From: Dehalococcoidia bacterium
GTDB taxonomy: Bacteria > Chloroflexota > Dehalococcoidia > UBA6926
Length of the DNA stretch: 64,000 bases
Assembly (NCBI GenBank): GCA_034428515.1
Contig: DAOUHQ010000013.1
Location: 82,371-146,370 of the forward strand
Reading direction: 5' to 3'
The position numbers and the translations under genes were made by a program. The first letter of the stretch is position 1. Each line of letters opens with the position of its first letter. Of the stretch, positions 7,138-55,511 are shown one piece after another. The notes under the pieces were generated by a model. That model ran no database searches. It saw only the letters and a list, made by a program, of their open reading frames with translations, and had not been told where the DNA came from.

Positions 7138-7241
7138 GGGCGTCCTTCCTTTCCTTTTGGTGCTATGGTGATTCGGCGAGGCTCCGGCACCCGGTGGGGG
7201 AGGGTGACGGAGCCTTGAGATTCGGCCATGGCATTGACCGT

Positions 7242-20788: not shown

Positions 20789-20805
20789 CAGAGGGAGAGT
20801 CCACC

Positions 20806-23025
20806 ATGAAAGACATGCAGAACGGGGCCGAGAGGCCCGACCCAACCACAGACGACGGCCAGCTCACGCGGTTCTTCATGATCTCGCACGTCGAGGACGA
20901 TGGTCCGGTACGTGCGGACGGCGTCAAGCTCGGAATCCTAGAATCGCTTGGCCTCGAACTCGACGAGGCGAAGCTCGGGGCGTTCGCGGGGGCACTCAAC
21001 GCGATAGACTTCCCGGTGCAGCTTCTCATCAGGCAACATGCACCGGAACTTAGCCGTTTACGCGCGCAGTTGACGACCGATCAGCCGGAGAACTTGCCTC
21101 CACGGACGGCCTCTGCCGCCGATTCCCTGCGTGGATTGCTGACCGACCTGGAAAGCCGCGAGGGCGTTGTCGACCGTCGATTCTACGCCGTCTGCGCGTT
21201 CGAGCGGATTGACGATCTGCGTGGCCTCATGGTGCGCGCAGGACTGGCGGTCAATCACATGACTGGCCGCCAGTTGCGGATGCTGATTCTCTCGTCTGCA
21301 GCGGGCAATTCCCCGCGAGAAGTCGGAAATGAGGAAGGCCTTGAGATTGAGATCCGGCGGCGTGAGATTCGTGTGGGGGATACGCTTGCGCGGGCTCTGC
21401 ACCTTGGCAAGTGGCCCCGCGCGTTGATACCCGGTTTTCTTCAGGCTCTGATGGCGTCCGGTACACGGATGGACGTGTCAATCCATCTCGGCCCCATACC
21501 CGCCGATCAGGCATCCCGCACGCTTGAATGGCAAAAGGTGCGGTTCGAGTCGGCCCAATCATTGTCACTGCGGCGGGGCAGGACCATGTCGCCGGAGGCG
21601 GAGATTGCGCTGGAGGACGTGAGGCGTCTGCGGGATGAAGTGCAGCGGGGAAGGGAGCGACTCTTTCATTCCTCGCTGTCCATCACCCTGTACGCCCGCG
21701 ACGAGACAGAACTCAAGGAGACGACGCAGGGTGTCCGGGCCCATTTCGCGGCCACCCTTGGCAAGATCGATACCTTGCCGTTCCGGCAGCGTGAGGGCCT
21801 CTTGTCGTCACTGCCCATAGGGCTGAATTCTATCGGGACGTGGCGGACACTGGACACGTCCTCGCTCGCGCGGCTCTTCCCCTTCTCCCCGCCCGACCTC
21901 GACACACGCAGCGGCACGCTCTACGGCATCGACCTGCGCTCGTCGTCTCCCATTGTCTATGACCCGTTCGACGGCACACACCTGAACGCCAATACAGCCG
22001 TGCTCGCTCGATCCGGCAGCGGCAAGTCTTTTGCCACGAAACTCGGCGTGCTGCGCGGCATCTGCCGCGGGGTAACCGCGTACGTCATCGATCCCGAGGG
22101 CGAGTATGCAGATATGGCGCGGGCGGCGGGAGGCCGCGTTCTCTCACCGGGAGTGCCGGGCCAAGGCATGAATCCGTTCGTCATCGACCGCTCCGACAGC
22201 GAGGAATTGCTGCTTCGCATCGGCAGCTTGAGGCGTCTGATCGAGGTCATGGTCGGTGAACCGCTCGGCGCTGAGAGGAGAGCAGTTCTGGACCATGCGC
22301 TTGCCGCCTACTACATGGAGCCCAGAGAGAGAACGGGGTTTCGGGACTTCTACGAGCACCTGAAAGAGCACGGCGACGGAGTCTTGGATAAACTGCTCAG
22401 GCCGTTCGCGACGGGCAGCCTCAGGCATCTCCTTACGGATGAGGGTGACGATCTGTTGATCAACGAGGCTCCGGTCACCGTGTTCGATCTCCGGCTGCTT
22501 GAGCCCGAACTGCGCCCTGCGGCCGCAATGGTCTGCACGGAAACGGTCTGGACTGCGGCCGCACAGAATCCGAAACCTCGAGTGCTCGTCGTTGATGAGG
22601 TCTGGTCGATAATGCAGCATCCTGAAGGAGCGGCATTCATGGTCAGCATGGCCAAGCGCGCCCGAAAGCACCGGCTTGGTCTGCAGTTCATTACTCAGGA
22701 CGTGCAGGATCTGTTGTCCGAGGACACGTCGCGTGCTATCACCGGCCATTCAGGTCGTGCGTTGCTCCAGAACGCCGCTTTCAAGCTGCTGCTTCAACAG
22801 GACGCGGCGGCCATCGGCACAGTCGGTGACGCATTCGATCTCCCCGATGATCTCCAACGTTGGCTAATCTCTTGTCCGCGTGGAGACGGCCTGTTGCTGG
22901 CGCGCGGCGGAAGGTTCCCGATTCGCATCGAGGCCACGAGGGAGGAGGCCGAGGTCATTGAATGGAGGCCCGGCCGCCATCGACGACAGACCGTTACATC
23001 AAACAGCGCGGAGGTGACGCAATGA
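20806..23025 (+). CDS. virB4: VirB4-like conjugation ATPase
   Basis: Walker A ARSGSGKS, VIDPEGEY, Walker B LVVDEVW, KRARKH, ITQDVQD. Start set at 20806 (GAGGGAG upstream). Confidence 0.9.
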   Translation: MKDMQNGAERPDPTTDDGQLTRFFMISHVEDDGPVRADGVKLGILESLGLELDEAKLGAFAGALNAIDFPVQLLIRQHAPELSRLRAQLTTDQPENLPPRTASAADSLRGLLTDLESREGVVDRRFYAVCAFERIDDLRGLMVRAGLAVNHMTGRQLRMLILSSAAGNSPREVGNEEGLEIEIRRREIRVGDTLARALHLGKWPRALIPGFLQALMASGTRMDVSIHLGPIPADQASRTLEWQKVRFESAQSLSLRRGRTMSPEAEIALEDVRRLRDEVQRGRERLFHSSLSITLYARDETELKETTQGVRAHFAATLGKIDTLPFRQREGLLSSLPIGLNSIGTWRTLDTSSLARLFPFSPPDLDTRSGTLYGIDLRSSSPIVYDPFDGTHLNANTAVLARSGSGKSFATKLGVLRGICRGVTAYVIDPEGEYADMARAAGGRVLSPGVPGQGMNPFVIDRSDSEELLLRIGSLRRLIEVMVGEPLGAERRAVLDHALAAYYMEPRERTGFRDFYEHLKEHGDGVLDKLLRPFATGSLRHLLTDEGDDLLINEAPVTVFDLRLLEPELRPAAAMVCTETVWTAAAQNPKPRVLVVDEVWSIMQHPEGAAFMVSMAKRARKHRLGLQFITQDVQDLLSEDTSRAITGHSGRALLQNAAFKLLLQQDAAAIGTVGDAFDLPDDLQRWLISCPRGDGLLLARGGRFPIRIEATREEAEVIEWRPGRHRRQTVTSNSAEVTQ

Positions 23026-25619
23026 GAAACGAATCCCTCATCAAAGGGCTGAAACGCACCAGTGGCGAACTTTCCCATGAACTCCTTGCCGTCATGCCGC
23101 CACGGAGCGGCGAACGAACCCTGCTCGCAGTGGAGAACCTGCTCCAGTCAATCGCCCAGCCTGAGCCGTTCTCGCTTGAACTCGTCGGCGATCGGGACGG
23201 CGTGCGACTGCTTGTGCGCTGCCTCGATTCGCAAATGGTGGCGAGTCAGATTGCTGCCCACTATCCACAGGCCCGTGTCGCTTCGCTGGGAGCGGCCGAC
23301 GATCCCATGCTCGTCGGCGAAGGTCACGATGCATGGACGATGCATCTTCGTTCTAGCGGCCCGGAACCGCTTTCTCTTCGCCAGGCGAAGGACGAGGTTC
23401 TCCTCGAAGAGGGCTCCGATCCAATGCTCGCCGTAGTCGGTGCTCTCTCATCGCTGCGATCCGGCGAACGAATTATCTCCCGCCTTCTTCTCCGGTCGAT
23501 TGGCCAGGAGTGGTCGACAACTTACGAATCGGAACTTGACACCCAGAAGACGGCCACTCGCAGCCCGGAGCGGGAATCGCAGGTCAGTCGCGGAGAAATC
23601 ATGCGACTGATGCTGCTCGGCGGCGGAGCGCTCGTTGGACTGAAGGTGTGGCAGCTCTGGCAGGCTGGAGACGAGTTGAAGGCAATCGGACTCGCGGTCG
23701 GCGCGGTGTTCGCCACGCTGACCGCTGCGATCCTGTGGGCGCGGTTCATAGGAAGTGGCTCCCGCATCCACGATGCGCCGCCGGTCAGGGAAAAACTCTC
23801 CCGCATGGCTTTCGACGGGGAACTCCAGGTCACCGCAATCGTAAGCGAGCGGGCGGGCAGGCGCCGCGGCGAGGAGCTCCTTCATCATGTCGCGGTGGCC
23901 TACCACCACTACGATAACCCGGCCGGGGCGCACTTCGTCGCCGGCAAGATACGGCCTTTGTCCGGGACCGTCGAACTCGGCCCTTCGAGCCCTGGGTTCT
24001 TTCGAAGGCGCAGCGTCCTCGGCGTCAGTGAGGTCGCCAGCCTCTGGCATCCACCCAACACGCGCGACGAGACGCCGCCAATCGAGCGATCCGGGTCGCG
24101 CGTCCTCTCGCCGTTATTTCAGGAGATGAGCAATGGCGCACACGCGGGCAACGCGACGACGGATTCTCGCGAACAGATCCGTTTCCCCGACGACCTGCTT
24201 CGTCGCCATCACCTTTATGTCGCCCGCACGCGCATGGGCAAGTCTACGCTCATGCAGCACATCGTGGCACACAAAATGGCTCAGAAGGCCGAGGGCCGCG
24301 ATGATGACGCCATCGTGGTCATTGATCCTCACGCCGACCTTGTGGCCTCTCTACTGGAGCACGTGCCTGATGAACTGGCGGACAGCGTTCGGCTCATCGA
24401 CCTTGCCGATCCCAATGGCGCGCCAGGAATCAACCTGCTGGACACCCGCATCTTCACAGACCGCGACCGTACGGCGGACTCCGTTGTTCGCATCGCTCGC
24501 GGGCTGTGGGATCAGTGGGGGCCCCGCATGCAGTCGATTCTGGAGCAGGTCGTCAAGACGCTCCACGAAGCCAATGAACAGAGAGAAGCGGATGAGCAAT
24601 ACACAATCCTCGACGGTCTCCGGCTCCTCGCCTCTAACAACGAATCCTTCAGGCACGGCGTGCTGAGGGACGTGGACGACGTCCACCTTCTGGAGTGGTG
24701 GGCACGCGATTTCACGAGCTGGCACCGCCAGTACCAGTCCGAAGCTCTGGCTCCCGTCCAGACTCGTCTTTCCTATTACGCCACGTCGAAGAAGGCTCGG
24801 GCCATCCTCGGCCAGAGCCGGTCAACCGTCGACATTCGGCAGACTATCCGGGATGGCGGCATCCTCCTAGTCTCGACGGCGCAGGGTGTTGCTGGACGCG
24901 ATGTGTCCGCCCTCGTGGGCTCATCGCTACTCAACCTCGTCGATGCAGTGATCCGCGAACAGGGCGAGAGACCAATCGAGGAGCGCCGCCCGGTGCTGGT
25001 CGTGGTTGACGAGATGCAGTCGATGCCCGGGGTGGACTACGATTCCATGTTGTCGGAGCTGGGGAAGTTCGGAGCGAGCTTCGTCCTCGCCACTCAGAGC
25101 CTCGCCAAGCTCGACGATCTTTCGCGTTCGATGCGCTACAGCGTGCTGGCTAACGTCGGTTGTCTGGCCGTCTTCCAGGTGGCCGCGTCCGATGCCCGCC
25201 AACTCGTCGACGAATTGGGAACCGATCGCGTCACCCAAGACGACATCACCTCGCTGCCCGTCCATCACTGCTACGTCCGCGCAACCGTCGGTACGCGGCG
25301 AATGCCCACGTTCTCGATGGAGGTCCGCAAGCCGCAACCGGGAAACACGGGCACGGCGCGGCGCATAAGGCAGGCCACGGAGGAGTACACGACAGGGCAC
25401 GCGACGCTGGTGGCTCGCGACGCCAGCCTCGACCGTCTGGTCGCGGACTATCGGAAGAACGAGGAGGAAAAGCAGCCGGCATCCGGTGGTGAGCATTCTC
25501 CGGCTTCGGTAGTGTCTTCAACTGAGACGGCTAGACCACATCGAAGGAGGCGAGACGAGAGCGCAGGCAGTTCCAGCGATTCGAGCAAGCGGCAAGCGCG
25601 GGAGGGCAGGGCGAGATGA
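23022..25619 (+). CDS. virD4: VirD4/TraG-like type IV coupling protein
   Basis: Two TM helices; RHHLYVARTRMGKST (Walker A variant), VIDPHADL, VVVDEMQ, ELGKFG, LATQSL. ATG overlaps the virB4 stop. Confidence 0.88.
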   Translation: MRNESLIKGLKRTSGELSHELLAVMPPRSGERTLLAVENLLQSIAQPEPFSLELVGDRDGVRLLVRCLDSQMVASQIAAHYPQARVASLGAADDPMLVGEGHDAWTMHLRSSGPEPLSLRQAKDEVLLEEGSDPMLAVVGALSSLRSGERIISRLLLRSIGQEWSTTYESELDTQKTATRSPERESQVSRGEIMRLMLLGGGALVGLKVWQLWQAGDELKAIGLAVGAVFATLTAAILWARFIGSGSRIHDAPPVREKLSRMAFDGELQVTAIVSERAGRRRGEELLHHVAVAYHHYDNPAGAHFVAGKIRPLSGTVELGPSSPGFFRRRSVLGVSEVASLWHPPNTRDETPPIERSGSRVLSPLFQEMSNGAHAGNATTDSREQIRFPDDLLRRHHLYVARTRMGKSTLMQHIVAHKMAQKAEGRDDDAIVVIDPHADLVASLLEHVPDELADSVRLIDLADPNGAPGINLLDTRIFTDRDRTADSVVRIARGLWDQWGPRMQSILEQVVKTLHEANEQREADEQYTILDGLRLLASNNESFRHGVLRDVDDVHLLEWWARDFTSWHRQYQSEALAPVQTRLSYYATSKKARAILGQSRSTVDIRQTIRDGGILLVSTAQGVAGRDVSALVGSSLLNLVDAVIREQGERPIEERRPVLVVVDEMQSMPGVDYDSMLSELGKFGASFVLATQSLAKLDDLSRSMRYSVLANVGCLAVFQVAASDARQLVDELGTDRVTQDDITSLPVHHCYVRATVGTRRMPTFSMEVRKPQPGNTGTARRIRQATEEYTTGHATLVARDASLDRLVADYRKNEEEKQPASGGEHSPASVVSSTETARPHRRRRDESAGSSSDSSKRQAREGRAR

Positions 25620-35600: not shown

Positions 35601-36813
35601 CAGAGGAGTATTCGCCCCAATAGGAATCATATGTGCTTCCGTCACCATATGCCGCCACTCTGAAATAGTATGTCTGGTCGCATGGTGCTGAGAAATACTT
35701 CGGAGAAGGTGGGCCGCTGTCACCGACGCCCCCATGATCCTGCGGAATGAAGGGATCTGGGATCGCGAACGTTGAATCATCGTCCTCTGACGTCCCTCGC
35801 TGGATGCGATACGTAGAAGCGCCGATAACCTCGCCCCACCTCACCAAGACGATCGAAGTGCCGTGCTCAGGGGCCCGTGTCACGGTTACGCCGGTGGGGG
35901 CGAGCGGACAACTCGGTGCGCGTACCCCCGTCGAAGACCGCCCCCATTTGGCCGCGGTGTTCTCGCCATCGCCATACGCGGTCACACGGAAGTAGTACGT
36001 GATCGAACCGCATGGAGCATCAAGCGTGTCCGACGTGGCGAGATTGCCTCTACTATCCCGGGTGATGTTTTTGACTGTCGTGTAGTAGCCGCTCTTTGAG
36101 GTGCTGCGCTGGAGGCGATACTTCGCAACGTTGGAGACGGCTCTCCAACTGACCCGAACGGATGAGGGTCCGTCGGTGGACGGTCGCGTCACGGTAACAC
36201 CGCTTGGAGTTGCCGGCCTGGGCAGTGGGGTCGGAGTCGGCGTAGCTGTTGGCGGTTCAGGCGTGGGCGTAGCTGTTGGCGGTTCAGGTGTGGGCGTGTC
36301 TGGAGGTGGTTCGGGTGTGGGTGTATCTGGTTCGGGTGTGGCCGTGGGCGCATTGATCGTGACGCTCTTGGAAGCAGTATCGACTGTGGAGGTGCCCTCT
36401 CCGTCGGGAGACGTGAATAACAGCTGCGCCTCCACGCTTCCACTGCCTGCGGAACACCCATACAGAGTAACGGTTCTCGAAGCTGACGAGCTTGACGGCA
36501 CTAAACTCCAGGAGGTTCTACCTGTGCAGCCTGAGTTGCTGCCCAACTGCCCCGTCGCCTGAATCTCGACGTGATAGTAATAGTAGATCGACCCCATCCC
36601 CGATGCGCGGATCCTGTAATTGGACGAACTGCCCTCTGTGATTGATGACGCGCCGCTTATGGAAATTGACCCTGCAAGGCCTGACACTTGCGCATCAGCG
36701 CGGAACAAACCCCCCACACCTAGCAGCACGCCCGCTGCGATGAGCAGGATGACTGCCAACACGCCTAGCGCCTGAAAGGGATCCACAATCCAGAATCGTC
36801 TGCTCATCATCAT
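29629..36813 (-). CDS. Giant exported FN3-repeat protein with C-terminal phospholipase A2-like domain
   Basis: Signal/TM N-terminus (likely start 36813; the ORF is open to 36894), Pro/Thr linker, 10 Cys-containing FN3-like units, 3 canonical FN3 domains, Ig-like domains, then GCLKHDLAFGSL...NKHLSDSLFYAD...C. Confidence 0.88.
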   Translation of the reverse strand: MMMSRRFWIVDPFQALGVLAVILLIAAGVLLGVGGLFRADAQVSGLAGSISISGASSITEGSSSNYRIRASGMGSIYYYYHVEIQATGQLGSNSGCTGRTSWSLVPSSSSASRTVTLYGCSAGSGSVEAQLLFTSPDGEGTSTVDTASKSVTINAPTATPEPDTPTPEPPPDTPTPEPPTATPTPEPPTATPTPTPLPRPATPSGVTVTRPSTDGPSSVRVSWRAVSNVAKYRLQRSTSKSGYYTTVKNITRDSRGNLATSDTLDAPCGSITYYFRVTAYGDGENTAAKWGRSSTGVRAPSCPLAPTGVTVTRAPEHGTSIVLVRWGEVIGASTYRIQRGTSEDDDSTFAIPDPFIPQDHGGVGDSGPPSPKYFSAPCDQTYYFRVAAYGDGSTYDSYWGEYSSAVAAPDCPPPPAPTGVAVTRTAGTEPPDDPAEVEVSWNAFPSAARYRVGRKAEGSTYYTIVKTITEDDDGNLATSVRLDAPCGTDTFDFRVASYGDGEHYAEDWGESSTGVAAPTCPPTPGGVSVSRSATEGPTVVDVNWTHVTGASVHHVQRGTSRTDKSTFITAPRHTSQGEEGASGTATSFHYKAPCDQTYYFRIALKGNGTTYDSYWSEYSSAATAPDCPPPPAPTGVAVTRTAADEPPDNPSSVEVSWYSFSSAARYRVQRSTSRTSGYSTVETFTADDNGNLATSGTFDAPCGTAYYFRVAAYGDGETRGEAWGEYSTGIKAPTCPPAPSGISVTRSGSEGPTVVDVNWTHVSGTPTHHVQRGTSVTDESTFSDAPRHTPQNQGGASGTATSFHYKAPCDQTYYFRIALKGDGTPYDEYWGEYSSAVAAPDCPPPPAPTGVAVTRTAGSEPPDDPSEIEVSWYSFSSAARYRVQRSTSPNSGYSTVGTFTEDANGDLATSGAFDAPCGTTYYFRVAAYGDGENRGKAWGDYSDGIAAPNCPSTPSGVSVTRSATEGTTIVDVHWTHVSGAPVVYVQRGTSQTDDSAFTEAPRHTPQGEEGASGTARSDHYLAPCNQTYYFRLAVRSTGNQYWSEYSSAAAAPDCPPPPAPTGVTVTRTAGDEPPDDPSEVEVSWDAVANTSQYRVQRSTSLNGTYATISTITKDADNNLATSGTFDAPCGTTTYYFRVAAYGDGETRGESWGDPSDAVQAPTCPPTPTGVSVTRSTTEGASVVDVSWTDVTGASVHHVQRGTSATDESTFISAPRHTPQDQEGASGTAKSNNYQAPCGQTYYFRVALRGDGTTYDSHWGEYSTPVAAPACPEPPDQVDQPTLTTGHASIGVTWTAPSPGTSPIERYEVQHKVSTATSWTGAPQVTDTKTTVSSLTNGSAYEVQVRACSSDGCSDWSISATGTPRALQVSISANLDKPKPGQTVTLTAIISNPPIGASAPSYQWNTSGWWRPDSNSSTDRHLSDRPSTLTHRVRVTYSSGVTATSDLFTLRWAYPPAPPPTLRGTVQPTTMSLSWDAVSGAAKYQVQYRTSGGTWSTPTETTTTSLTVSSLTSDTMYEFRARSYGNNTTHAAEWGDWSHSLVSTTGVPPTPDLNRAYAKTATSVTFSIDRVDGVGSYQIRHRTDSVQTWTEGTEITIPATGDITHTITGLTANTGYHFSLRLRGDGTHYVKEVGGTKSWSQWSADVQESTPLVTLSISGERSPLYEGEQITLTVTADDLPTTGSYEIEVKAYGAEGGESSTTDSDLGFNSTCSDVEESEDVNAAGKTIHTATFTLHACAFENNGGGFVIATFLDSNDNVVAGDWVYLEVRPVTVSISADNPFPITTGTTAERKVTLTAGMDGPVGTTFNYYHWQTPALDDEVCTNVQNATSATHELNPTSATTKSIRVIVKENSADTDCYFSEPVYVTWNLGSTLREITDALAANFVTPTATPDPGPSGQADKLPQHRKVLLDKESALLTCTTGSSDGSFTALMTGYEVGSPLAALLETEDDPTTLDVVEGCKGDLDTAWTAIESSFSTTLTTIRTTGTNAAAIDAFLASKPGQSFITYITSQVQIKQSIQDFIVPAASILANEPAVQGNTGGNSGGNGANGQGEDQVGICLRRAGIGAADDPRKATLQQRLDTLNCLTFQTPHSFWIDLARPIVDSNANSTLLDTYKEKVVDPDDTDEQKEGMWLDGQDFECTWETDIRSFISTAIRIFLPPPNNVDLNHNAAQIAGCLKHDLAFGSLRLIDNSAAGDDPDSAWNPRNKHLSDSLFYADAVCLDKLGSERRDCLANTTEFWNSTSISWLSSEAAQRTWAVAQFNNKGWPITREHITDAAQEPRYKVCAEPLPRIDTTSLRAHIGDEYITVSWTLIPSCVNEEIDKVILTGPVLRATRNIESEVTTTPALSTKIKKPAYFSSRGVRLGHAFIFPARRVYGSHEFDQDDFHVVIVE
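33001..36216 (-). repeat. Ten tandem ~105-110-aa FN3-like coding repeats alternating types A and B
   Basis: Each unit has P.GV.VTR...V.W...QR.TS...APC...YYFR...W..YS...AP.CP. Type A carries GNLATS..DAPC; type B carries QG..GASG...APC(D/N/G)QT. Confidence 0.9.
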
Positions 36814-37070
36814 GTGACTCTTTACCGGGCCAGCTTCTGGTGTAGAGGAACCCGTACTCTTGCGGCTATATTGAGTCAGCCTACCAAAATACATGTAACT
36901 GATGTGTCATTTTTTGATGATAACTCATGACTTTTTATGACGATTTGGAGAACTCTGTAAGATTGCCTCCGTTGGCACCCAATTATGCGGCACCTAAAAT
37001 GGAAGGAATGTAGATGCCCGCATGTCCGCATCGAGGCAACTATGTGGACCGATCAGACGAACTGATGTGA

Positions 37071-37431: not shown

Positions 37432-37462
37432 GCCCCTTACCAGTCGAACGGTGGGGGGAACG

Positions 37463-38908
37463 ATGCGGGTTGCCTGTGTGCTCATTACGCATCTGAGAGC
37501 GAAGGTCGAGATGAGGAGGCGGCCGGATGTAGCAGACCGGCCTGCCGTGATCGTCGCACGTGGTCAGAAAAAGCCCCTCGTTGTCGACTACTCGCCTGCT
37601 GCCTCCCGAATCAGAATCGGCATGACGCCGGAACAGGCGCTCTCGCAGCAGGTGGACACCCTAATCCTTGAGACAGACGAGCCAACCTATCGCAGTGTCT
37701 TCCGGCAAACCCTCACCGCGTTGCAACAGGTCAGCGACCAGGTTGAGGGTGCGGGCCTTGGAACAGCCTACGTGCGAATGGTGGGACTGGATGAGATGTA
37801 TGGCGGCGAGGACGCGCTGGTCGCCGCGTTGCACCAGGTGGTCCCGAACTACCTGCAGGCGCGGATTGGGGTCGGTGAGGGGAAGTTCCCTGCATTCGCC
37901 GCCGCCACCGCCGCCCCCCAACTCGGCGTCACTACCGTCCCGCCCGACGCGGCGGAGTTCCTGTCCCTGTGCTCCGTTGACTTGTTGCCGGTAAAGGAAG
38001 AAACTCGCCTAGGCCTTCGCCGCTTCGGCCTTCGCACACTGGGCGACATTGCCGCGATGCCCGAAGCTGCGCTTATTGACCAGTTTGGCGTAGAGGGTGG
38101 CGCTGCGTGGCAGTTTTCGCACGGCAGCGACGACAACCCACTGATCCCCCTCGCATATGAGGAATCCGTCTCGGAGCGCATGTCGTTGCCGTTCGCGTCG
38201 AGGTCCTTGGAACTCGTCACCGTCACGGTAGACGCCCTCCTCAAACGGGCATATACCGTGCCGCGAATGCGCGGACGTTACGCCGGAGCCGTCACGCTCC
38301 ACTGCCTTCTGCTCAACGCTCCCACGTGGGAGCGGACGGTGCGGTTCAAGCAACCCGCCGGTACATGGGAGCGCGCATCGGAGATCATTGCGACGCGGAT
38401 GGCGCAGGATCACCCGCTTGCGCCCGTCGAAGAAGTCAGCGTCACTCTGAGCGACCTGAGCGGCGATACGGGAATGCAGATGGGCCTGCTATATGACCAT
38501 CGGCGTGACCGACGTGAGCGGCTGCTGGAGGCGGGCAGGGGGCTCCGCGCCCACCTCAAGGGTGGTAGTGCTCTCTATCAGGTACTGAATGTCGCGCCGT
38601 GGCACCCCGCGCCGGAGATGCGCGCCCTCCGCGTCCCCATCGATTCCTTCACAGGTGATGACGCGACTCCGTTGGCAATGCCCGCTGCGCTGGCTGTGCG
38701 GGAAGGCCCAAACCGTCAACCGCTGGCCGTGCAACTGGGCAATAAATGGCACAGAATCGCTCACATCGAAGATCGGTGGAGCTTCGATCTCTGGTGGCTG
38801 CCGCAGCCGCTCACTAGGACCTACTACCGCGTCAGCCAAGAGGATGGCCGCGAGCTGATTCTGTTCCGGGACCGGCGCGACGACTGTTGGTATCAGCACG
38901 TGCCTTAA
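37463..38908 (+). CDS. imuB: ImuB-like catalytically inactive Y-family polymerase with C-terminal DUF6504-like extension
   Basis: Y-family fold, but the acidic motifs are replaced (ACVLITHL; GLGTAY instead of SIDEAY); C-terminal IEDRW...WW...YYRV. Confidence 0.82.
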   Translation: MRVACVLITHLRAKVEMRRRPDVADRPAVIVARGQKKPLVVDYSPAASRIRIGMTPEQALSQQVDTLILETDEPTYRSVFRQTLTALQQVSDQVEGAGLGTAYVRMVGLDEMYGGEDALVAALHQVVPNYLQARIGVGEGKFPAFAAATAAPQLGVTTVPPDAAEFLSLCSVDLLPVKEETRLGLRRFGLRTLGDIAAMPEAALIDQFGVEGGAAWQFSHGSDDNPLIPLAYEESVSERMSLPFASRSLELVTVTVDALLKRAYTVPRMRGRYAGAVTLHCLLLNAPTWERTVRFKQPAGTWERASEIIATRMAQDHPLAPVEEVSVTLSDLSGDTGMQMGLLYDHRRDRRERLLEAGRGLRAHLKGGSALYQVLNVAPWHPAPEMRALRVPIDSFTGDDATPLAMPAALAVREGPNRQPLAVQLGNKWHRIAHIEDRWSFDLWWLPQPLTRTYYRVSQEDGRELILFRDRRDDCWYQHVP

Positions 38909-38921
38909 GAGCTACCGCGTC

Positions 38922-41900
38922 ATGACATCACCCTACACTGAGTTGCACGCCAAGAGTTTTTATTCCTTTGGGGAGGGAGCGTCGCATGTCCATGAACTGC
39001 TGGCACAGGCCAAGGAGTACGGCTATGACGCGCTCGCGCTGACCGACACGAACCTCTGCGGTGCGCTGGAATTCGCACGGCTGGCCAAGAGCCTCGGCGT
39101 GAAGCCCATCACTGGCGGCGAGTTGACCCTTTGCGACGGCTCCCGCATCACGCTGCTGGCCAAGAGCAAGCAGGGCTACGCCAACATCTCAAGGTTGTTT
39201 ACGCTCGCCAATTCCGTGGACCGCCGTGAGCCGCGTCTTGATCCCGTCCATCTGCTCGATCACGCCGAGGGCGTCGTGCTTATCGCGGGTGGGCGCGACG
39301 GCCAACTCTCCCGCCTTGCATTGAGTGGACGGCATGACGACGCTCAAAAACTCCTGCGCGACTACTTGGATTGGTTCGGGCCAGACGGCGTGTTCGTGGA
39401 GTTGCAGCAGAACCTCATTCGTGGAGATACTACACGGAACCGCGAGCTTGCGCGTCTCGCCAGGGACACGGGGGTCTGCCTCGTTCCCACGAATGATGTC
39501 CATTACCACGCGCCGGAGCGATACCGCCTCCAACATGCGCTCGTTGCCGCCAAGCACAACACCACCATCGACCAGGCCCTCCCGCATATTCGCCCAAATC
39601 ACCACTTCCATCTGAAGCCCCACGACGCGATGGCGCGGCTCTTTGAGAGGGAGTACCCGGGGATCATTGACGTAACGCGCCGCATCGCCGAGCAGTGCGA
39701 CTTCAACCTGGCCGACAGCATCAACTACGAACTGCCGGAGCCGGACGTGCCGGCGGGCTACACCACGGACAGCTATCTGCAACGCCTCTGTTTCGAAGCG
39801 GCAATGCGACGTTACGGCGGCATCTCGCAGCGCGTGCAGGATCGACTCGATGAAGAGTTCAGTCTCATCAAGCGGCACGGCATCGCCGGTTTCCTGCTGC
39901 TGTACCGGGACATTGTTCTATTGGCCCAGCAGATCATGGAAGAGCGCGAGCTGACGCCGCCGGAGATCCCGTTGGAGGAGAGACCGCCGGGCAGGGGGCG
40001 CGGGTCGTCCGTTGCGCTGTTGGTCGGTTACCTCATCGGCATCAGCCACATCGATCCCATCAAGTGGGACCTGACGCTGGAGCGGTTCATCTCCGAGGAC
40101 ATGTCCATGCTGCCGGACATTGATCTCGATTTCCCGCGCGGCCTGCGCGACGAGCTCATCACCCGCGTTCATCGACGCTACGGCCCGGACTACGCCGCGC
40201 TCACCGGCGCGATCAGCACCTACTCCGTCAAGGGCATCATCCAGGACATTGGCAAGGCTCTCGGCCTCCCGAAAGAAGACCTCACCCTCCTCTCCAAGCA
40301 ACTCCACTCCCACCATGCCGATGACCTCAAAGAGGAGATGCTCCGTTTACCCGCCTACAAGGACCGTGTTGAGTCGCAGGGTTGGCGGGAACTGATTGAA
40401 CTCGCTCCCCAGCTCATGGACGCCCCCCGCAGCCTTGGCCAGCATGTCGGCGGCATGATCCTCAGCAGCTCGCCCATCTCGGAGATGACGCCCATCCGGG
40501 AGGGGGCGATCGTGGGGCGCTACATCATGGACTGGAACAAGGACACCATCGCTGACGCCAACGTCGCCAAGATCGATCTCCTCTCGTTGCCGGTTCTCGA
40601 CCAGTTGGAGCAGTCGCTTGATCTCATCGAGCAGCGGACGGGCAGCCGTCCCGACCTTAGCCGCGTGGAGCCGGATGATGACAACGTCTATGACATGATC
40701 AACGAGGGACGTGCCAAAGGTATCTTCCTGCTGCAATCACCGGCCCAGCTCAAGATGGCGCAGCGACTCCGCTCGCGTAATCTTCTTGACCTTGCCTACC
40801 AGGTCGCGCTGATTCGGCCTGGTGTGGGAGTGCAGGGCAGTTCCGTCAGCCAGTTCGTGGAGCGATACCGGCATGGTGCGAAGTGGGACTACGATCATCC
40901 GCTGGAGAAGCGGGCGCTGGAGCGCGGTTACGGCATCATCGTCTGGCAGGAGCAGGTGGTGCAGTTGCTGGCGGACGTTGCCGGCGTCACGACGGCGGAG
41001 GCGGATGAGATACGCCGCACCTTTGGTCGTCCCAACAATGCCGCCCTGATTGAGATGCACTGGCAGCGATTCCTTGAGGGAGCGCGTCGCAACGGCGTGC
41101 CGGACGATATCGCGGAGAAAATCTTCGGCAAGGTCAACGGCCACTACATGTTTCCGGAGAGCCACAGCCACGCATTCGCCATCACTGCCTATCAAGCCGC
41201 GTGGCTCAAGCGCTACCACCCCCTGGAGTTCTTTGTGACCCTCATCAACAACCAGCCGATGGGTTTCTACCCGATGGAGACCCTCAAGCAGGATGCGCGG
41301 CGCTTCGGCGTCCCGTTCCTCAATCCCTGCGTGAACCGCAGCCAAGCCCTATGTATCTCGGAGGGTGGAGCAGTGCGGCTGGGCCTTGGCTTTATTAGGG
41401 ATGTTGGCGAGGCGGCGGCGCGCGCCATCGTTGAAGAGCGGGAGGCGCGAGGCCGATACGGCAGTCCCGCCGACCTTGTGAGCAGAACGGGCATCACGCC
41501 GCAGGCTGCCGCATCGCTCGTGATGGCGGGCGCGTTCGATGATGTCTCGTCCAACCGCAGACAGGCCTTGTGGGATGTTGGCCTTGCCAACCGCCCACTC
41601 AGGAGCGGTCAGCGCACTCTCGCCGCAACCACTGACCACGTCACCCCTCAACTCAAGGATTTTTTGGAATACGAGAAGATGGTTGGCGAGTATCGCGTCA
41701 TGGGCATCTACCCGCGCGGCCACGTCATGGAATTTGTGCGCTCCACGCTAAACGACCACGTCCTGCGAACGTCAGACGTGTACAACATGCCTGAGGATCA
41801 GGAGGTGCTCGTTGCCGGTTGGCCGATTGCCCGGCAGCATCCGCGCGGGCGAGACGGCACCGTCTTCGTCACCATCGAGGACGAGTGCGGCGACGTACAA

Positions 41901-42071
41901 CTCATTCTCTGGAAGGACGTGTTCGCGCGATCCCGGCGTGCCCTGCGCAACCGCGTTATTATGGCGCGCGGTGTTGTCTCTCGCTGGGACGGCACGACGA
42001 ACATCATCGCCTCGGAAATCCGTGCCATCAACACCGATGTCCCCATGCCAAACGCTCACGACTGGCACTGA
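38922..42071 (+). CDS. dnaE2: Error-prone DNA polymerase III alpha (DnaE2/ImuC)
   Basis: PHP domain ELHAKSFYSF, PPGRGRGSS, PDIDLDF, FPESHS, C-terminal OB fold; follows imuB. Confidence 0.93.
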   Translation: MTSPYTELHAKSFYSFGEGASHVHELLAQAKEYGYDALALTDTNLCGALEFARLAKSLGVKPITGGELTLCDGSRITLLAKSKQGYANISRLFTLANSVDRREPRLDPVHLLDHAEGVVLIAGGRDGQLSRLALSGRHDDAQKLLRDYLDWFGPDGVFVELQQNLIRGDTTRNRELARLARDTGVCLVPTNDVHYHAPERYRLQHALVAAKHNTTIDQALPHIRPNHHFHLKPHDAMARLFEREYPGIIDVTRRIAEQCDFNLADSINYELPEPDVPAGYTTDSYLQRLCFEAAMRRYGGISQRVQDRLDEEFSLIKRHGIAGFLLLYRDIVLLAQQIMEERELTPPEIPLEERPPGRGRGSSVALLVGYLIGISHIDPIKWDLTLERFISEDMSMLPDIDLDFPRGLRDELITRVHRRYGPDYAALTGAISTYSVKGIIQDIGKALGLPKEDLTLLSKQLHSHHADDLKEEMLRLPAYKDRVESQGWRELIELAPQLMDAPRSLGQHVGGMILSSSPISEMTPIREGAIVGRYIMDWNKDTIADANVAKIDLLSLPVLDQLEQSLDLIEQRTGSRPDLSRVEPDDDNVYDMINEGRAKGIFLLQSPAQLKMAQRLRSRNLLDLAYQVALIRPGVGVQGSSVSQFVERYRHGAKWDYDHPLEKRALERGYGIIVWQEQVVQLLADVAGVTTAEADEIRRTFGRPNNAALIEMHWQRFLEGARRNGVPDDIAEKIFGKVNGHYMFPESHSHAFAITAYQAAWLKRYHPLEFFVTLINNQPMGFYPMETLKQDARRFGVPFLNPCVNRSQALCISEGGAVRLGLGFIRDVGEAAARAIVEEREARGRYGSPADLVSRTGITPQAAASLVMAGAFDDVSSNRRQALWDVGLANRPLRSGQRTLAATTDHVTPQLKDFLEYEKMVGEYRVMGIYPRGHVMEFVRSTLNDHVLRTSDVYNMPEDQEVLVAGWPIARQHPRGRDGTVFVTIEDECGDVQLILWKDVFARSRRALRNRVIMARGVVSRWDGTTNIIASEIRAINTDVPMPNAHDWH

Positions 42072-42974: not shown

Positions 42975-44630
42975 ATGAAGAATCAGTTAATTGCAAGAAG
43001 TGAAAACGACGCGCAAACAGCCGTTGCGCTCTACGCAAGAGTGTCGAGCGAACGGCAGGATGTTGACCTGTCGGTGTCGGCACAGTTGCGAGCACTCAGG
43101 GATTACGCCTCGAAGAACGGCTACGTCGTAGCGGGGGAGTATATCGACGAGGCTGAAAGCGGGCGGAACTCGCAGCGGCCGCAGTTCCGGCGCATGATCG
43201 ATGATGCCACGCGACCGCACGCGCCGTTCAAGGAGATCCTTGTCTGGAAATTCTCGCGGTTCACCCGCAAGAGGGAGCACTCTGTCGCGTACAAGTCGAT
43301 GCTTCGGCGGCGGGGCATCAGGGTTGTTTCAATCACTGAGCACGCCGACGAAAGCCCGCTGGGCAAGTTGATGGAAGGAATCATCGAGAGCGTCGATGAG
43401 TTCTATTCGGAGAACCTGGGACAGGAGGTCATGCGCGGTATGCGCGAGGCCGCATCGCGCGGCTTCTGGGTGTCGCCGCAAATCCCCCTCGGCTATCGCA
43501 AGGTCATGGTTGATGACAATGGCAAGAAGCGGCCCAAGCTTGAGATCGACCCTCCCGCAGATGCAGTTATCCGGCGGATTTTCGACATGGCTCTGCGCGG
43601 CAAGAGCTCCCTCGACATTGCCAAGGAGCTAAACGCCGAGGGGGTGCGGTCTCCCAAGGGCAAGCAATGGCGGAAGACGAGCGTCGTCGCCACGTTGTCC
43701 AATGAGGTATATACGGGCACGCTCGTGTGGGGTCTCACTGCCAGAGATAAAGGCGATGTGATTCGTCTGGAGGACGCCTTCCCCGCCATCGTGGAGAAAC
43801 AGGAGTTTCGGCGTGTGAGAAGGCTGCTCGAAACGCGGGCACCCAAGTGGATGCACCCTCGGCGCACGTCCAGCCCATACCTTCTGAGCGGCCTCCTCAA
43901 ATGCGCAACGTGCGGCAGCTTGATGACCGCGTCCGAGGCCAAGGGCGGCAGGTACACCTACTATGTCTGCCAGACCCTCCTCAAGAAGGGCAGCGGTACA
44001 TGCGAGACGCCGCGACTCAACTCCCAGTGGTTTGAGCAGTTGATCATCGACCAACTGCGGACCAACGTCCTGACTGAACAGAACATCCGCCATTTGGTCA
44101 TCATGCTCGATGAGGAGATGGACGGCGAAGCTCACTCGCTAAGGCAGACGCTGCAGACGACCGACGCCGAGTTGGGCGAGGTGAGCCGACGGCTTGAGAA
44201 TCTGTATGAGGCCGTGGAAACGTCCGAACTCGACTTGATCGACGTTGCGCCTCGCATCAAGCAACACCGCGAACGACAGGCTCAACTGGAAGCGGCTGTC
44301 GATGAGGCGCGGGCCGGACTCGCAGAACGCCGCAAGATTCTCGACCGGGTGGAGACCATCACGGCGTTCGCCAAGGAGATGGGTGAATTCCTGCGCACCA
44401 GCGAGATCACGGAGACGCGGTCATTCATCCGCTCATTCGTGAAGGGGATTAATGTCAGCCCGGGCAAGGCGGTGATCAACTACACTGTTCCCATGCCGGA
44501 GGATAGCCCGATTGGGGCTTCAAAGGTGACTGGGCTTGATCTGGAAGCCGCAGTTCGCAAAACAGACCAACATGGTGGGCGATACAGGACTCGAACCTGT
44601 GACCTCTTCCGTGTGAAGGAAGCGCTCTAA
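42975..44630 (+). CDS. Large serine recombinase (integrase)
   Basis: ALYARVSS catalytic motif, recombinase domain, CATCG...YYVCQ zinc ribbon, coiled coil; C-terminus overlaps tRNA-Val. Confidence 0.95.
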   Translation: MKNQLIARSENDAQTAVALYARVSSERQDVDLSVSAQLRALRDYASKNGYVVAGEYIDEAESGRNSQRPQFRRMIDDATRPHAPFKEILVWKFSRFTRKREHSVAYKSMLRRRGIRVVSITEHADESPLGKLMEGIIESVDEFYSENLGQEVMRGMREAASRGFWVSPQIPLGYRKVMVDDNGKKRPKLEIDPPADAVIRRIFDMALRGKSSLDIAKELNAEGVRSPKGKQWRKTSVVATLSNEVYTGTLVWGLTARDKGDVIRLEDAFPAIVEKQEFRRVRRLLETRAPKWMHPRRTSSPYLLSGLLKCATCGSLMTASEAKGGRYTYYVCQTLLKKGSGTCETPRLNSQWFEQLIIDQLRTNVLTEQNIRHLVIMLDEEMDGEAHSLRQTLQTTDAELGEVSRRLENLYEAVETSELDLIDVAPRIKQHRERQAQLEAAVDEARAGLAERRKILDRVETITAFAKEMGEFLRTSEITETRSFIRSFVKGINVSPGKAVINYTVPMPEDSPIGASKVTGLDLEAAVRKTDQHGGRYRTRTCDLFRVKEAL

Positions 44631-44649
44631 CCAGCTGAGCTAACCGCCC
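44573..44649 (-). tRNA. tRNA-Val(CAC)
   Basis: GGGCGGT acceptor stem, anticodon arm CTTCC-TTCACAC-GGAAG, GTTCGAGTCC T-loop, encoded CCA. Confidence 0.96.
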
Positions 44650-44760
44650 ACCGTTTGCCCCGGCCCGCTCCGTTCTCCATCGCGTCGCAGTTCAAGCTCG
44701 CGCGGAGACGGGTTCTTGGCGACGGTTATTGCCGTCGCGTGCCACGGCATGTGTCTCGTG

Positions 44761-44835
44761 TGGTGGCAACGACAGGATTCGAACCTGTGACCTAGCGCTT
44801 ATGAAGCGCCCGCTCTGCCGCTGAGCTACGTTGCC
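44761..44835 (-). tRNA. tRNA-Met(CAT), elongator type
   Basis: GGCAACG acceptor with G1-C72, loop TTCATAA, GTTCGAATCC, CCA end. tRNA-Ile2 is not strictly excluded. Confidence 0.9.
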
Positions 44836-50839: not shown

Positions 50840-52180
50840 TTACAGATTATCCAGCTTGTCTGCGATGAGCGTGGCAACGTGGTCGTGAATGGACGGCTCC
50901 CGAATGGCATCCACGATCTCCGAGACGAAGGCGCGAATAAGCATCATCCGCGCTTCTTCCTCTTCAATCCCGCGGCTCAGCAGGTAGAACATGGAATCCT
51001 CGTCAAGGTTGCCGCATGCCGCGCCGTGTCCACAGCGCACATCATCGCAATAGATCCAGAACGCGGGCTTGGTGTCCGCCTCCGCGTCATTGGAGAGCAG
51101 CAGGTTCTTGTCCACCTGCATCGCGTTCACCTTGGCGGCGTTGGGGCGGACGATGATGCTGCCGTGGAAGACTGAGCGGGCATGGCCGTCAAGGATTCCC
51201 TTGTAGAGTTCGTTCATATCGTTGTGACCGACGAGATGGTCGACGATGACCTGGTTATCAACGTGCTGGTCACGGCTGATGACGTACGCGCCGCGGACAT
51301 CGCTGTTCGATCCCTCGCCCGCCATGATGACAGTGAGATTGTTGCGGGTAAGCCGTCCGCCGATGTCGATGGCCATGGAGCGGAAATTAGCGTTCTCGTT
51401 GACCTCAACCTGCGTGGTTGAGACGTTGTACGTCGCTTCGCTCTCCTGCTGGACCTTGCAGTAGGAGATGCTGGCGCCCGCGCCGACGACGATTTCCGTG
51501 ACGGCGTTGGTGAGATGGGCGTCGTCAGACAGGGAGACGTGTGTCTCCACTATGGACGCGGAGCTGTCCTCTCCGGCGATGATGAGGGTGCGGGGCATGG
51601 ATGCCGTTCCCTGCGTTTGCTCGGTGGAAACATAGACAATCTGGATGGGTTGCTCGACCGAGGCCATGCGCGGGAGGAGGATGAGCGCGCCGTCCGCCGC
51701 GAGGGCGGTGTTGAGGGCGGTAAAGCCCTGCTCCTTGTGGTCGGCGAGACGGGTCAGATGGGCGCGGACGGCATCCGATTCGGAGTGGACGGCTTCGGCC
51801 AGGCTTCCCGTGACGACGCCGTCCGGCAAGCTGTCCAAAGCGGAAAGCTCCGGCGTGTATCGGCCATCGACAATGACGACGCGATGCCATGACGGATCGC
51901 CGATGTTTAAGGATTCAAGATTAAGGGCGGCAGCGGCGTCGGGTTCTGCGAAAGTGGGCGCCGCGAATCCCTGGCGGACGAGGGGTCGGATGTCCGTGTA
52001 TTTCCATTCCTCATTGCCGCGACGGGTGGTGGGGAGGCCGAGTTCCTGGAAGCTATCCAACGCCTCGGCGCGAATATCCGCGATCCAATCAGGGTCGCGG
52101 CCGGCGCGCGCTGCGTGGTACTCGCGCGCCGCGCCTGCGAAATCTGTGAGGTACGTATCGAGCGGGCTTGTGGTGGTCAT
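50840..52180 (-). CDS. sufD: Fe-S cluster assembly protein SufD
   Basis: EEWKYTD, beta-helix, YKGILD...VFHG, LLLS...ADTKP...CGHGA. Start set at 52180. Confidence 0.92.
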   Translation of the reverse strand: MTTTSPLDTYLTDFAGAAREYHAARAGRDPDWIADIRAEALDSFQELGLPTTRRGNEEWKYTDIRPLVRQGFAAPTFAEPDAAAALNLESLNIGDPSWHRVVIVDGRYTPELSALDSLPDGVVTGSLAEAVHSESDAVRAHLTRLADHKEQGFTALNTALAADGALILLPRMASVEQPIQIVYVSTEQTQGTASMPRTLIIAGEDSSASIVETHVSLSDDAHLTNAVTEIVVGAGASISYCKVQQESEATYNVSTTQVEVNENANFRSMAIDIGGRLTRNNLTVIMAGEGSNSDVRGAYVISRDQHVDNQVIVDHLVGHNDMNELYKGILDGHARSVFHGSIIVRPNAAKVNAMQVDKNLLLSNDAEADTKPAFWIYCDDVRCGHGAACGNLDEDSMFYLLSRGIEEEEARMMLIRAFVSEIVDAIREPSIHDHVATLIADKLDNL

Positions 52181-52214
52181 TTGGTGCTTGCCGGATTGCC
52201 GTTTTACGGGCTGT

Positions 52215-53705
<1,491 letters not shown>

Positions 53706-53844
53706 AGAGTTTCACCTGCCTCAGTAGTTGCTCAATGGGGTCGGCGTCCTGCGGATATCTCAATCTGAACCAATCCGCAGACACTCCCACTCGCCTATTG
53801 TACCTGTATAGCAGACCTCGTGCGATATCAATTGCCCCATTCGG

Positions 53845-54618
53845 CTATTTGCCCGCGAAACGAGCATTACCGCTTGAAACCCAAGAACGAACCTGTCGTT
53901 CCGCCCGGCCTGAAATCAGTATCAGCCCGATGGCGATGAGCCATACGAAGAAGACCATGCCGGACATGCGATGCAGGGCGGTGAAATCCTGAATCCATAT
54001 CAGTTGCATCACCGCTCCCACGACTGCGGAAACGGGCGCTATGGTGCGGAGGATTCCGCCAAACCGGTACTGCCAGGGGGACACAACGATGAGGGCAAGG
54101 CCCACGATTGAGAAGCCTGCCACACCGGTGAGCCAATGGAACTCGTCCATGAATTCATGGATCGAGCTTGCTGATCCGCCCGAGCCGGGCAGGGATGCGG
54201 TCAACAGGATTGCGGTAAGGCCGGAGATGGTGGTGAAGACGCCTGACAGGGCAAGGATGCCGGGGACAATGGGCGTTACACGCCGCTCACGGATGATCCA
54301 CGTCCGGTACAAGTAGAGCGCGGCCACAGTCAGCGTTATGCCCGACGCGAGCCTGCCAGCGCCGCTCAGGGCGTAGGGGAACCTGCTATCAGCGATTGCA
54401 GCCAGCGTCTCCTGCACGGTGTCACGGTCCGCATCTGCCGCGACACGCCCCGCCACCGCGACCAACGTCACGAGCGCGGTGAGAATCAGGAAAAGTCCGG
54501 CGTTTCGGGCTGCTTTGCTGGGAACAGCCGTCTCTGTGTGGGCAACAGAGGATTCCGCCTGCGCGCGTTGACGCGCGTCGCTCTTTGGTTCGTCTGAATC
54601 GTTGCCTATTGCTGTCAT
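53845..54618 (-). CDS. Polytopic membrane protein (DUF4386-like)
   Basis: About six hydrophobic helices; family assignment tentative. Confidence 0.55.
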   Translation of the reverse strand: MTAIGNDSDEPKSDARQRAQAESSVAHTETAVPSKAARNAGLFLILTALVTLVAVAGRVAADADRDTVQETLAAIADSRFPYALSGAGRLASGITLTVAALYLYRTWIIRERRVTPIVPGILALSGVFTTISGLTAILLTASLPGSGGSASSIHEFMDEFHWLTGVAGFSIVGLALIVVSPWQYRFGGILRTIAPVSAVVGAVMQLIWIQDFTALHRMSGMVFFVWLIAIGLILISGRAERQVRSWVSSGNARFAGK

Positions 54619-54744
54619 TGACCTGAGAACAATGGTAAGGGAGGTCGATGGGGTTGGCAAAGCAGATTCGCAATACAAGGGCTATTGAGGGGGCGTATAG
54701 TAATGGAGTCACGCGGGGCGGGCCTGCGAGCAAGGGAGTTCATT

Positions 54745-55380
54745 ATGGCGACCGCATCAGCAACGATTCTTCCGGTCACGGTCTGGTACGACTACATTTG
54801 ACCGTGGTGCTACATCGGCCAGGAACGGGTCGATAAGCTGAAGCAGGACTTCAACGTCGAGATAGACTATCGCGCGTTTTTCCTGCGTCCCGATCTGCCG
54901 CCGGAGGGCATTGCCCGGCCTGAGCGGTACAATAATCCGAACTCACCCGTGCAGCAGGCCGCTGAGGCTGCGGGCATCGTCATGAACAGGCCAGAGCGGG
55001 TGCCATACACGCGACTCACGTTGGAGGCGACCGAGGCTGCCAAGCAGGCAGGCGCGGGCGAAGCGTTCCATGAGGCGGCGTACCGCGCTTATTGGGGCGA
55101 CGGCGTCGATCTTAGCGTTGTGGAGAACCTCAAGCCTATCGCCGAGGAAGTTGGCCTCGATTGGCCGACGATGCACAAGCACATTGAGGATCGCACGTAC
55201 AAGGAAGAGGTTGAGCGGCAGTACCAGGACGCGCTGAACATCGGCGTCACAGGTATTCCGGCCTACGTAATCGGGCGATTCTTCTTTGTCGGCGCGCAGC
55301 CGTATGACGTGTTCAAGCAGGTTGCGGAGCGTGCGATCACGATGATGGAAGAGGGTGAGGATCCGGGGTTCAAGAGCTAG
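54745..55380 (+). CDS. DsbA/FrnE-like oxidoreductase, selenoprotein (U-P-W-C)
   Basis: ATG 54745 after AAGGGAG; VWYDYI-TGA(54799-54801)-PWCYIG is in frame with ORF 54949-55380; GVTGIP cis-Pro motif near the C-terminus. Confidence 0.88.
54814..54834 (+). promoter_or_regulatory. Candidate bacterial SECIS hairpin
   Basis: ATCGGCC-AGGAACG-GGTCGAT, a 7-bp stem starting 12 nt after the UGA, with G early in the loop. Confidence 0.6.
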
Positions 55381-55402: not shown

Positions 55403-55434
55403 GAGGGGCGTCCCGATGGGGCGCCTCTTTTCTT
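55403..55434 (+). terminator. Intrinsic terminator after the DsbA-like gene
   Basis: GAGGGGCGTCCC-GAT-GGGGCGCCTC followed by TTTTCTTT. Confidence 0.65.
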
Positions 55435-55511
55435 TGGGGTGCAGGTGGGTTGCAGGCAGGGCTTACAATCGTTGCGTGATAGTTTTCACTGGGGCTGACA
55501 GTTAGCCTGCC

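Follow-up and report, generated by a model that had tools for sequence, protein, structure and literature searches.

The segment at positions 54745-55380 of the window, by which we mean the whole 64,000-nucleotide stretch of DNA analysed here, most probably encodes a 211-residue cytoplasmic thiol-disulfide oxidoreductase of the DsbA/FrnE type in which selenocysteine (Sec) replaces the N-terminal active-site cysteine (U19-P-W-C22). On the basis of the sequence comparisons described below, we assign a probability of about 0.88 to this reading. As an earlier note on this DNA had claimed, the gene carries an in-frame TGA exactly at the first cysteine of a CPWC motif (54799-54801; VWYDYI-U-PWCYIG in translation), and the listed open reading frame (ORF) is indeed short by 68 codons, with 143 instead of 211 amino acids. 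The gene and its immediate surroundings comprise the following features:

54734-54738, plus strand: Shine-Dalgarno-like GGGAG, 6 nt before the ATG (read from the sequence)
54745-55380, plus strand: coding sequence of the predicted DsbA/FrnE-like selenoprotein, 211 codons, TAG stop at 55378-55380 (translation)
54799-54801, plus strand: predicted Sec codon TGA, codon and residue 19, the U of UPWC, aligned to the first Cys of CPWC
54808-54810, plus strand: TGC, codon of the resolving Cys22 of UPWC (translation)
54949-55380, plus strand: 143-aa ORF with GTG start, an annotation artefact (ORF list; the Logan gene call is also 143 aa)
55249-55260, plus strand: TGIP, residues 169-172, aligned to GITGVP of FrnE
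55403-55437, plus strand: terminator-like GC-rich hairpin and T run, 23 nt past the stop codon (consensus scan, pattern match only)

The TGA is the sole internal stop of the 54745-55380 frame (context VTVWYDYI*PWCYIGQERV in translation). When Cys is substituted for U19, the translation matches the Pfam DSBA family (PF01323) with E=3.9e-34 and 118.5 bits (cutoff 25.6) over protein residues 11-192, corresponding to profile positions 2-188 of 191. As the CPWC of FrnE is also aligned with the UxxC site, the domain assignment of the earlier note, DsbA/FrnE-like with a UxxC active site, is borne out. Cys22 is the only cysteine of the translated 211-residue protein, and its position is invariably occupied by Cys in the 28 close sequences, with both TGC and TGT occurring as codons. 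T169, G170, I171 and P172 are invariant in the alignment of homologues (A1) and correspond to the cis-Pro loop of the thioredoxin fold. The active site is preceded by the 18 residues MATASATILPVTVWYDYI, in which a cleavable hydrophobic leader is absent as read from the sequence; since just 18 residues precede the active site, the protein appears to be devoid of a signal peptide. The terminator-like hairpin consists of 12 pairs (8 of them G-C) and a 3-nt loop followed by TTCTTT, as obtained from the consensus scan. A genome-wide reassignment of TGA was considered and rejected, because TGA serves as an ordinary stop codon at the end of 15 of the 35 ORFs of at least 150 aa in the 64-kb window. 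A Logan contig of ca. 10 kb from run SRR3473501 agrees with the window over 9,210 nt (100% identity), the TGA included; its value as an independent check is limited, as the same reads may also underlie the assembly of the window. The nearest species-representative genome shows ca. 93% DNA identity to the window and a conserved gene order.

The conservation of the TGA was assessed in a species-level scan, with one genome for each species and tblastn run through the stop codon, which yielded 31 loci, all from uncultured Dehalococcoidia/Chloroflexota. The matches cover residues 1-211 and run straight across the TGA. Complete chromosomes of the closest relatives are OY762213.1, CBDBLR010000003.1, OZ242019.1 and OZ250138.1. 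In 27 of 30 related loci, with protein identities of 47-99%, the TGA is found at the same codon and is embedded in the shared flanks [PV][VI]VWYDYI and PWCYIG, while three more distant relatives (L027, L028 and L029) carry TGC instead. The remaining locus, L031, does not enter this count of 30, as it contains just a 3' fragment of the gene. This fragment (L031:3516-3638) comprises the last 41 codons with 95% identity, is preceded by unrelated, stop-containing sequence and resides on a second contig of the metagenome-assembled genome (MAG) to which locus L002 belongs (APA_bin_32); it represents either a duplicated gene piece or a chimeric or strain-variant contig. Judging from isolate labels such as APA_bin_32, SB0661_bin_39 and Plut_88869, some of the relatives presumably derive from sponge and coral bins.

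All 28 close sequences possess the TGA codon, and the 10 codons before and 60 codons after it are open and conserved in these 28 Dehalococcoidia sequences. Within codons -9 to -1 we counted 45 synonymous versus 6 nonsynonymous variant cells, and a GGGAG or AGGAG motif plus start codon precedes the TGA at a similar distance in almost every one of the 27 Dehalococcoidia loci. Because of this synonymous variation and of the Shine-Dalgarno motif and start codon upstream, the part ahead of the TGA is evidently translated, and, as judged from these patterns, in frame with the region 3' of it. A DNA pattern scan further retrieved at least 120 metagenome contigs containing the DYI-TGA-PWCY gene, in which ca. 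190 codons past the TGA are open in nearly all sufficiently long contigs. According to the metagenome names, these contigs presumably originate from soil, sediment and ocean samples. The DNA pattern of the Cys form did not occur in the viral contigs scanned (0 matches). The retrieved full-length, more distant homologues in the databases are Cys forms reading SDYICPWCYIG, and the alignment to Cys-containing homologues, suggested in the earlier note as a check, places the TGA on the first Cys of this motif.

The second component expected of a bacterial selenoprotein gene, a hairpin 12 nt downstream of the UGA, was located where the earlier note had seen it (54814-54834), and the analysis adds an invariant loop nucleotide and an outer extension:

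54814-54834, plus strand: SECIS-like hairpin AUCGGCC-AGGAACG-GGUCGAU, 7 bp, starting 12 nt after the UGA (single-sequence fold)
54814-54820 and 54828-54834, plus strand: the two hairpin arms, with the loop at 54821-54827 (single-sequence fold)
54823, plus strand: invariant loop G, alignment column 25 (G25)
54809-54811 and 54836-54838, plus strand: outer GCU/AGC extension of the hairpin

The 62 nt starting from the UGA fold at -16.1 kcal/mol with z = -0.10 relative to shuffles and are thus stable at chance level, and because the single-sequence stability matches that of the shuffles, the significance of the hairpin has to be derived from comparative data only. Among the 28 Dehalococcoidia sequences the codons of the arms are frozen, with ATC at +5 in 28/28, GGC at +6 in 27/28, CAG at +7 in 26/26 and GTC at +10 in 27/27 cases; elsewhere in the same gene, 3-5 synonyms are in use for Val, Gly, Ile, Leu and Pro. 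The lone GGC to GGG change (L030) is compensated by a GTC to CTC change in the opposite arm. For a covariation analysis, 133 distinct 54-nt sequences starting from the UGA were aligned without gaps, and a helix pairing columns 16-23 with 29-36 was specified. Its register is identical throughout the 133-sequence alignment. In the specified helix, 85.7% of the cells are paired compared with 28-48% in controls slid by 1-3 columns, and the covariation score amounts to 0.474, with the slid controls reaching 0.18 at most. None of 500 shuffles matched the observed paired fraction, the number of double changes or the covariation score, counts which are not to be read as probabilities given that the 133 sequences are akin. 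Covariation was found at 6 of the 8 helix pairs in the 133 sequences, for example at pairs 19-33 (AU:63/GC:57), 21-31 (UA:72/CG:53) and 22-30 (AU:77/CG:48). G25 is invariant in all 133 sequences even though its codon encodes E, D, V or G. RNAalifold alone returned just the three inner pairs with a weak consensus energy of -0.85 kcal/mol.

The outer four pairs of the helix are in part a consequence of the conserved amino acids IG...[VI][ED], and the Cys homologues form them as well. By contrast, pairs 21-31 and 22-30 of the inner helix are each formed in only 3 of 7 Cys-form genes, a small control sample of 7 distinct genes, compared with 128 of 133 Sec forms. Correspondingly, the helix energy mostly ranges from +5 to -2 kcal/mol in the Cys forms, whereas the Sec forms reach a mean of -6.2 kcal/mol and the window -8.9 kcal/mol. 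This difference points to a Sec-specific constraint on the inner helix. One Cys-form gene, P0027 (YSDYICPWCYIGLGRAERLKQD, L157:1001-1609), has kept a strong SECIS-like hairpin of -11.8 kcal/mol. Its locus is the sole Cys form with an intact hairpin, and the near-identical metagenome genes L063 and L133 carry TGA at the corresponding codon; the comparison suggests a recent switch between Sec and Cys, with the hairpin of L157 being either a fossil or still functional.

A search of Rfam at gathering thresholds gave no match of the hairpin to any SECIS family, and in a permissive search SECIS_3 (RF01989) came out best with 12.4 bits, a score at chance level (cutoff 63). The lack of an Rfam SECIS match is expected, since in bacteria each selenoprotein family has SECIS elements of its own. 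It is conceivable, albeit unlikely in our view, that the hairpin constitutes a single ancient RNA element specific to the DsbA-like family and that a Sec-dependent cytoplasmic disulfide system would be a core, selenium-demanding trait of this Dehalococcoidia clade. The idea of an ancient element is prompted by the register and the loop G, which are common to Dehalococcoidia and the metagenome contigs, and by the missing Rfam match; the core trait would follow, if the element were ancient, in combination with the Sec form in 27 of 30 loci. A more exotic variant would be a dually decoded UGA which is read as Sec or Cys depending on the selenium supply.

Of the explanations that dispense with selenocysteine, the most obvious one is a nonsense pseudogene, in which a Cys codon (TGC or TGT) recently mutated to TGA and left behind a decaying or dead gene. 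A TGC to TGA conversion takes one base change, the region upstream of the TGA is treated as non-coding by gene callers, and searches of the window and of the other loci gave no sign of the Sec machinery. Nevertheless, we consider a pseudogene very improbable, since 27 genomes at the species level and no fewer than 120 metagenome contigs share the same TGA, extra stops or frameshifts are absent (codons -10 to +60 in the 28 Dehalococcoidia sequences and the downstream frame in the metagenome contigs), purifying selection acts on both sides of the TGA, and a co-conserved, covarying hairpin follows it. Still less credit, in fact next to none, is given to a sequencing or assembly error concealing a TGC or TGT at 54799-54801. 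Such an error could be suspected as long as one window from an uncultured genome is considered, but 27 genomes that were assembled independently, among them several complete long-read chromosomes, show an identical TGA, as do at least 120 contigs of unrelated metagenomes and the SRR3473501 Logan contig. The nonsense pseudogene and the misread codon were the two outcomes which the earlier note had named as contradicting its proposal; the conservation of the TGA and of its coding flanks in these genomes and metagenome contigs speaks against both. A similarly poor case can be made for a UGA that simply terminates, with the downstream ORF of 143-191 aa as the functional product and the 18 upstream codons as a separate leader peptide or untranslated region. 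Internal start codons do exist and are picked by gene callers; the resulting protein, however, would miss the whole active site along with the initial strand and helix of the thioredoxin fold, although the alignment with FrnE already starts at residue 2. Moreover, the starts chosen by the callers differ from homologue to homologue (giving 131, 143, 161, 169, 180, 183 or 191 aa), which implies that a conserved internal start does not exist, and the supposed leader and the residues after the TGA exactly rebuild the DsbA motif DYI-C-PWCYIG. Because the TGA, both coding flanks and the upstream translation are conserved, we regard the pseudogene, the sequencing error and the downstream-start product as excluded for practical purposes.

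A recoding event in which an amino acid other than Sec is inserted is improbable as well, though somewhat less so than the preceding scenarios. The UGA might be decoded as Cys via a SelB-delivered tRNA resembling tRNA-Sec, or as Trp or Cys by near-cognate readthrough, which would yield an ordinary protein with a CxxC or WxxC site. SelB-dependent tRNAs that recode UGA as Cys do occur, the inserted amino acid is invisible to sequence data, and a hairpin plus conserved TGA would look alike in both cases; furthermore, Sec/Cys switches are frequent in the DsbA-like family, as exemplified by L157 versus L063 and L133. On the other hand, identical sequence signatures in the DsbA-like family have been published as Sec, the host genome uses TGA as a regular stop codon, and a mutation to TGC provides Cys without any machinery, a route which some relatives took. 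As TGA and hairpin have been kept over the long term though TGC would suffice for Cys, a Sec-specific benefit is implied.

Accepting Sec as the inserted residue, we propose the following scenario for the synthesis and function of the protein. Translation starts at ATG 54745 behind the GGGAG ribosome-binding site, as the sequence shows, and the ribosome arriving at UGA 54799 would pass it without terminating. The hairpin at 54814-34 with the unpaired G in its apical loop would work as a bacterial SECIS that recruits the SelB-GTP-Sec-tRNA(Sec) complex, upon which selenocysteine would be inserted and a further 192 codons would be translated up to the TAG. The mature enzyme is expected to alternate between the selenol/thiol and the selenenylsulfide (U19-C22) states and would reduce or isomerise cytoplasmic disulfides, as FrnE does, with Sec serving as the more nucleophilic, lower-pKa attacking residue. 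The sequences establish the domain identity, the UxxC motif, the conservation of the RNA structure and the fact that the UGA is translated through; the SelB dependence, the selenium content and the substrate of the DsbA-like protein are predictions.

The existence of Sec-containing DsbA-like proteins in marine bacteria, stated in the earlier note, is documented by 9 sequences of DsbA-like selenoproteins with a UXXC motif (COG2761), which Zhang, Fomenko and Gladyshev reported in 2005 from the Sargasso Sea metagenome (PMC1088965). The family was recorded in cultured bacteria in 2006 and is listed as "DsbA-like protein form 1, PF01323, UxxC" in a 2026 catalogue (PMC13188914). The protein of the window shares with form 1 the PF01323 domain and a UxxC at the CxxC position (N-terminus of helix 1), and Cys homologues are widespread for both the family and the gene of the window. 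The name "predicted DsbA family dithiol-disulfide isomerase" given to the homologues by JGI is the COG2761 label. The SECIS elements described for the COG2761 selenoproteins have a small apical loop containing G (PMC1088965); the loop of the window hairpin comprises 7 nt, whereas 5 nt are usual in the family. A further deviation concerns the residues before DYI, which are W-Y in the window protein, F-S being commoner in the family. In this comparison, made with the published features of the family (representatives AACY01178397 and NIP15863.1), the gene of the window has every testable feature of the DsbA-like selenoprotein family and nothing essential differs. It belongs to a selenoprotein family already described in 2005.

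Among the solved structures, the best match is FrnE of Deinococcus radiodurans (PDB 5CNW, 5CP1 and others) with E=1.2e-18 and a bit score of 70 at low identity. The two proteins are collinear over residues 2-186, with CPWC placed on UPWC and the TG[IV]P loop aligned, and in the aligned region neither shows an N-terminal signal peptide, but FrnE has Cys where Sec is predicted in the window protein. FrnE is longer (260 aa), the alignment ends at its residue 207, and the window protein with its 211 residues is devoid of the extra C-terminal region. Besides CPWC, FrnE carries a C-terminal CxxxxC tail; a counterpart is absent from the window protein, which ends at residue 211 and has Cys22 as its sole cysteine. 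Periplasmic E. coli DsbA, in contrast, possesses an N-terminal signal peptide, which the window protein lacks as read from the sequence. A more remote candidate, the thioredoxin-like (seleno)lipoprotein family Rcas_1661 (NCBIfam NF041057), was matched with 35.5 bits only, far below its cutoff of 190. On the RNA side, the hairpin resembles the SECIS of the E. coli fdhF type in its location inside the coding sequence directly 3' of the UGA and in the unpaired G of the apical loop, which is located 21-24 nt from the UGA in the window. It differs in that sequence similarity is absent and the stem is shorter (7-8 bp), and binding of SelB to it is predicted.

The genes for Sec synthesis and insertion were not encountered near the selenoprotein gene. 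ARAGORN and Rfam detected just tRNA-Val and tRNA-Met in the 64-kb window, tRNA-Sec was not found in the 31 loci, and tblastn with the E. coli SelA, SelB and SelD proteins (from NC_000913.3) gave no homologue in either the window or 1.2 Mb of further loci. A weak SelD-like match in L067 was discarded as a generic AIR-synthase/HAD fusion that stays under every curated cutoff. Via the literature on related organisms, we infer that selA, selB, selC and selD are present in the host genome: BSepDB reported in 2026 Dehalococcoidia MAGs with 46-49 selenoproteins each (PMC13326102), and SelA and SelB were found enriched in symbiont bins of the sponge Aplysina aerophoba (PMC5649159). A codon-usage screen of all in-frame TGAs revealed no second selenoprotein gene in the window, and a candidate TGA at 40739 was dismissed in this screen as an antisense artefact. 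Likewise, no second selenoprotein gene was detected in 1.3 Mb of further loci, and an all-against-all comparison of 6,147 TGA-containing ORFs from all the DNA analysed for TGA/TGA and TGA/Cys pairs yielded true gene ends and off-frame noise only.

The gene leaves the knowledge of Sec recoding and of DsbA-like proteins unchanged, and its main value lies in annotation, as a DsbA-like selenoprotein gene that is routinely cut short by gene callers. The 21 closest public protein entries (P0001-P0021; 60-97% identity) are all N-terminally truncated to 131-191 aa and miss the active site, unlike the more distant database homologues, which are mostly full length. This truncation is a systematic mis-annotation of the DsbA-like selenoprotein family, and since the public entries lack the active site, automated pipelines present a catalytically dead fragment in place of a full selenoenzyme. 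The 133-sequence hairpin alignment could seed a curated SECIS model for the DsbA-like family, and the gene provides a further marker for the use of selenium by a Dehalococcoidia lineage.

In its genomic context the selenoprotein gene stands alone. On the left it is flanked by a divergent gene for a DUF998-like membrane protein followed by SufB and SufD, on the right by TrkH/TrkA potassium-uptake genes, and the order Suf/DUF998/selenoprotein/Trk is the same in the relatives. As a separate observation, the left 44 kb of the window (655-44835) resembles an integrated conjugative or mobile element. The features of this region and of the left flank of the selenoprotein gene are:

655-3774, minus strand: SIR2 plus STAND NTPase plus TPR protein, putative mobile element
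4846-7674, minus strand: helicase, putative mobile element
12918-14039, minus strand: DnaG-type primase, putative mobile element
20314-23025, plus strand: VirB4/TraC-like ATPase, putative mobile element
22962-25619, plus strand: TrwB/VirD4-like coupling protein, putative mobile element
29629-36894, minus strand: 2,421-residue ORF, putative mobile element, with Pfam matches to fibronectin type III repeats only
37451-42071, plus strand: ImuB-like protein and DnaE2-like polymerase, putative mobile element
42975-44630, plus strand: large serine recombinase, putative mobile element
44573-44649, minus strand: tRNA-Val(CAC), overlapped by the 3' end of the recombinase ORF
44761-44835, minus strand: tRNA-Met, next after tRNA-Val(CAC)
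50840-54678, minus strand: SufD-like and SufB-like Fe-S assembly genes and DUF998-like membrane protein

The overlap between tRNA-Val(CAC) and the recombinase ORF within 44573-44835 of the window likely marks the integration site. In many of the relatives, the same tRNA-Val/tRNA-Met pair precedes the selenoprotein gene by ca. 10 kb.
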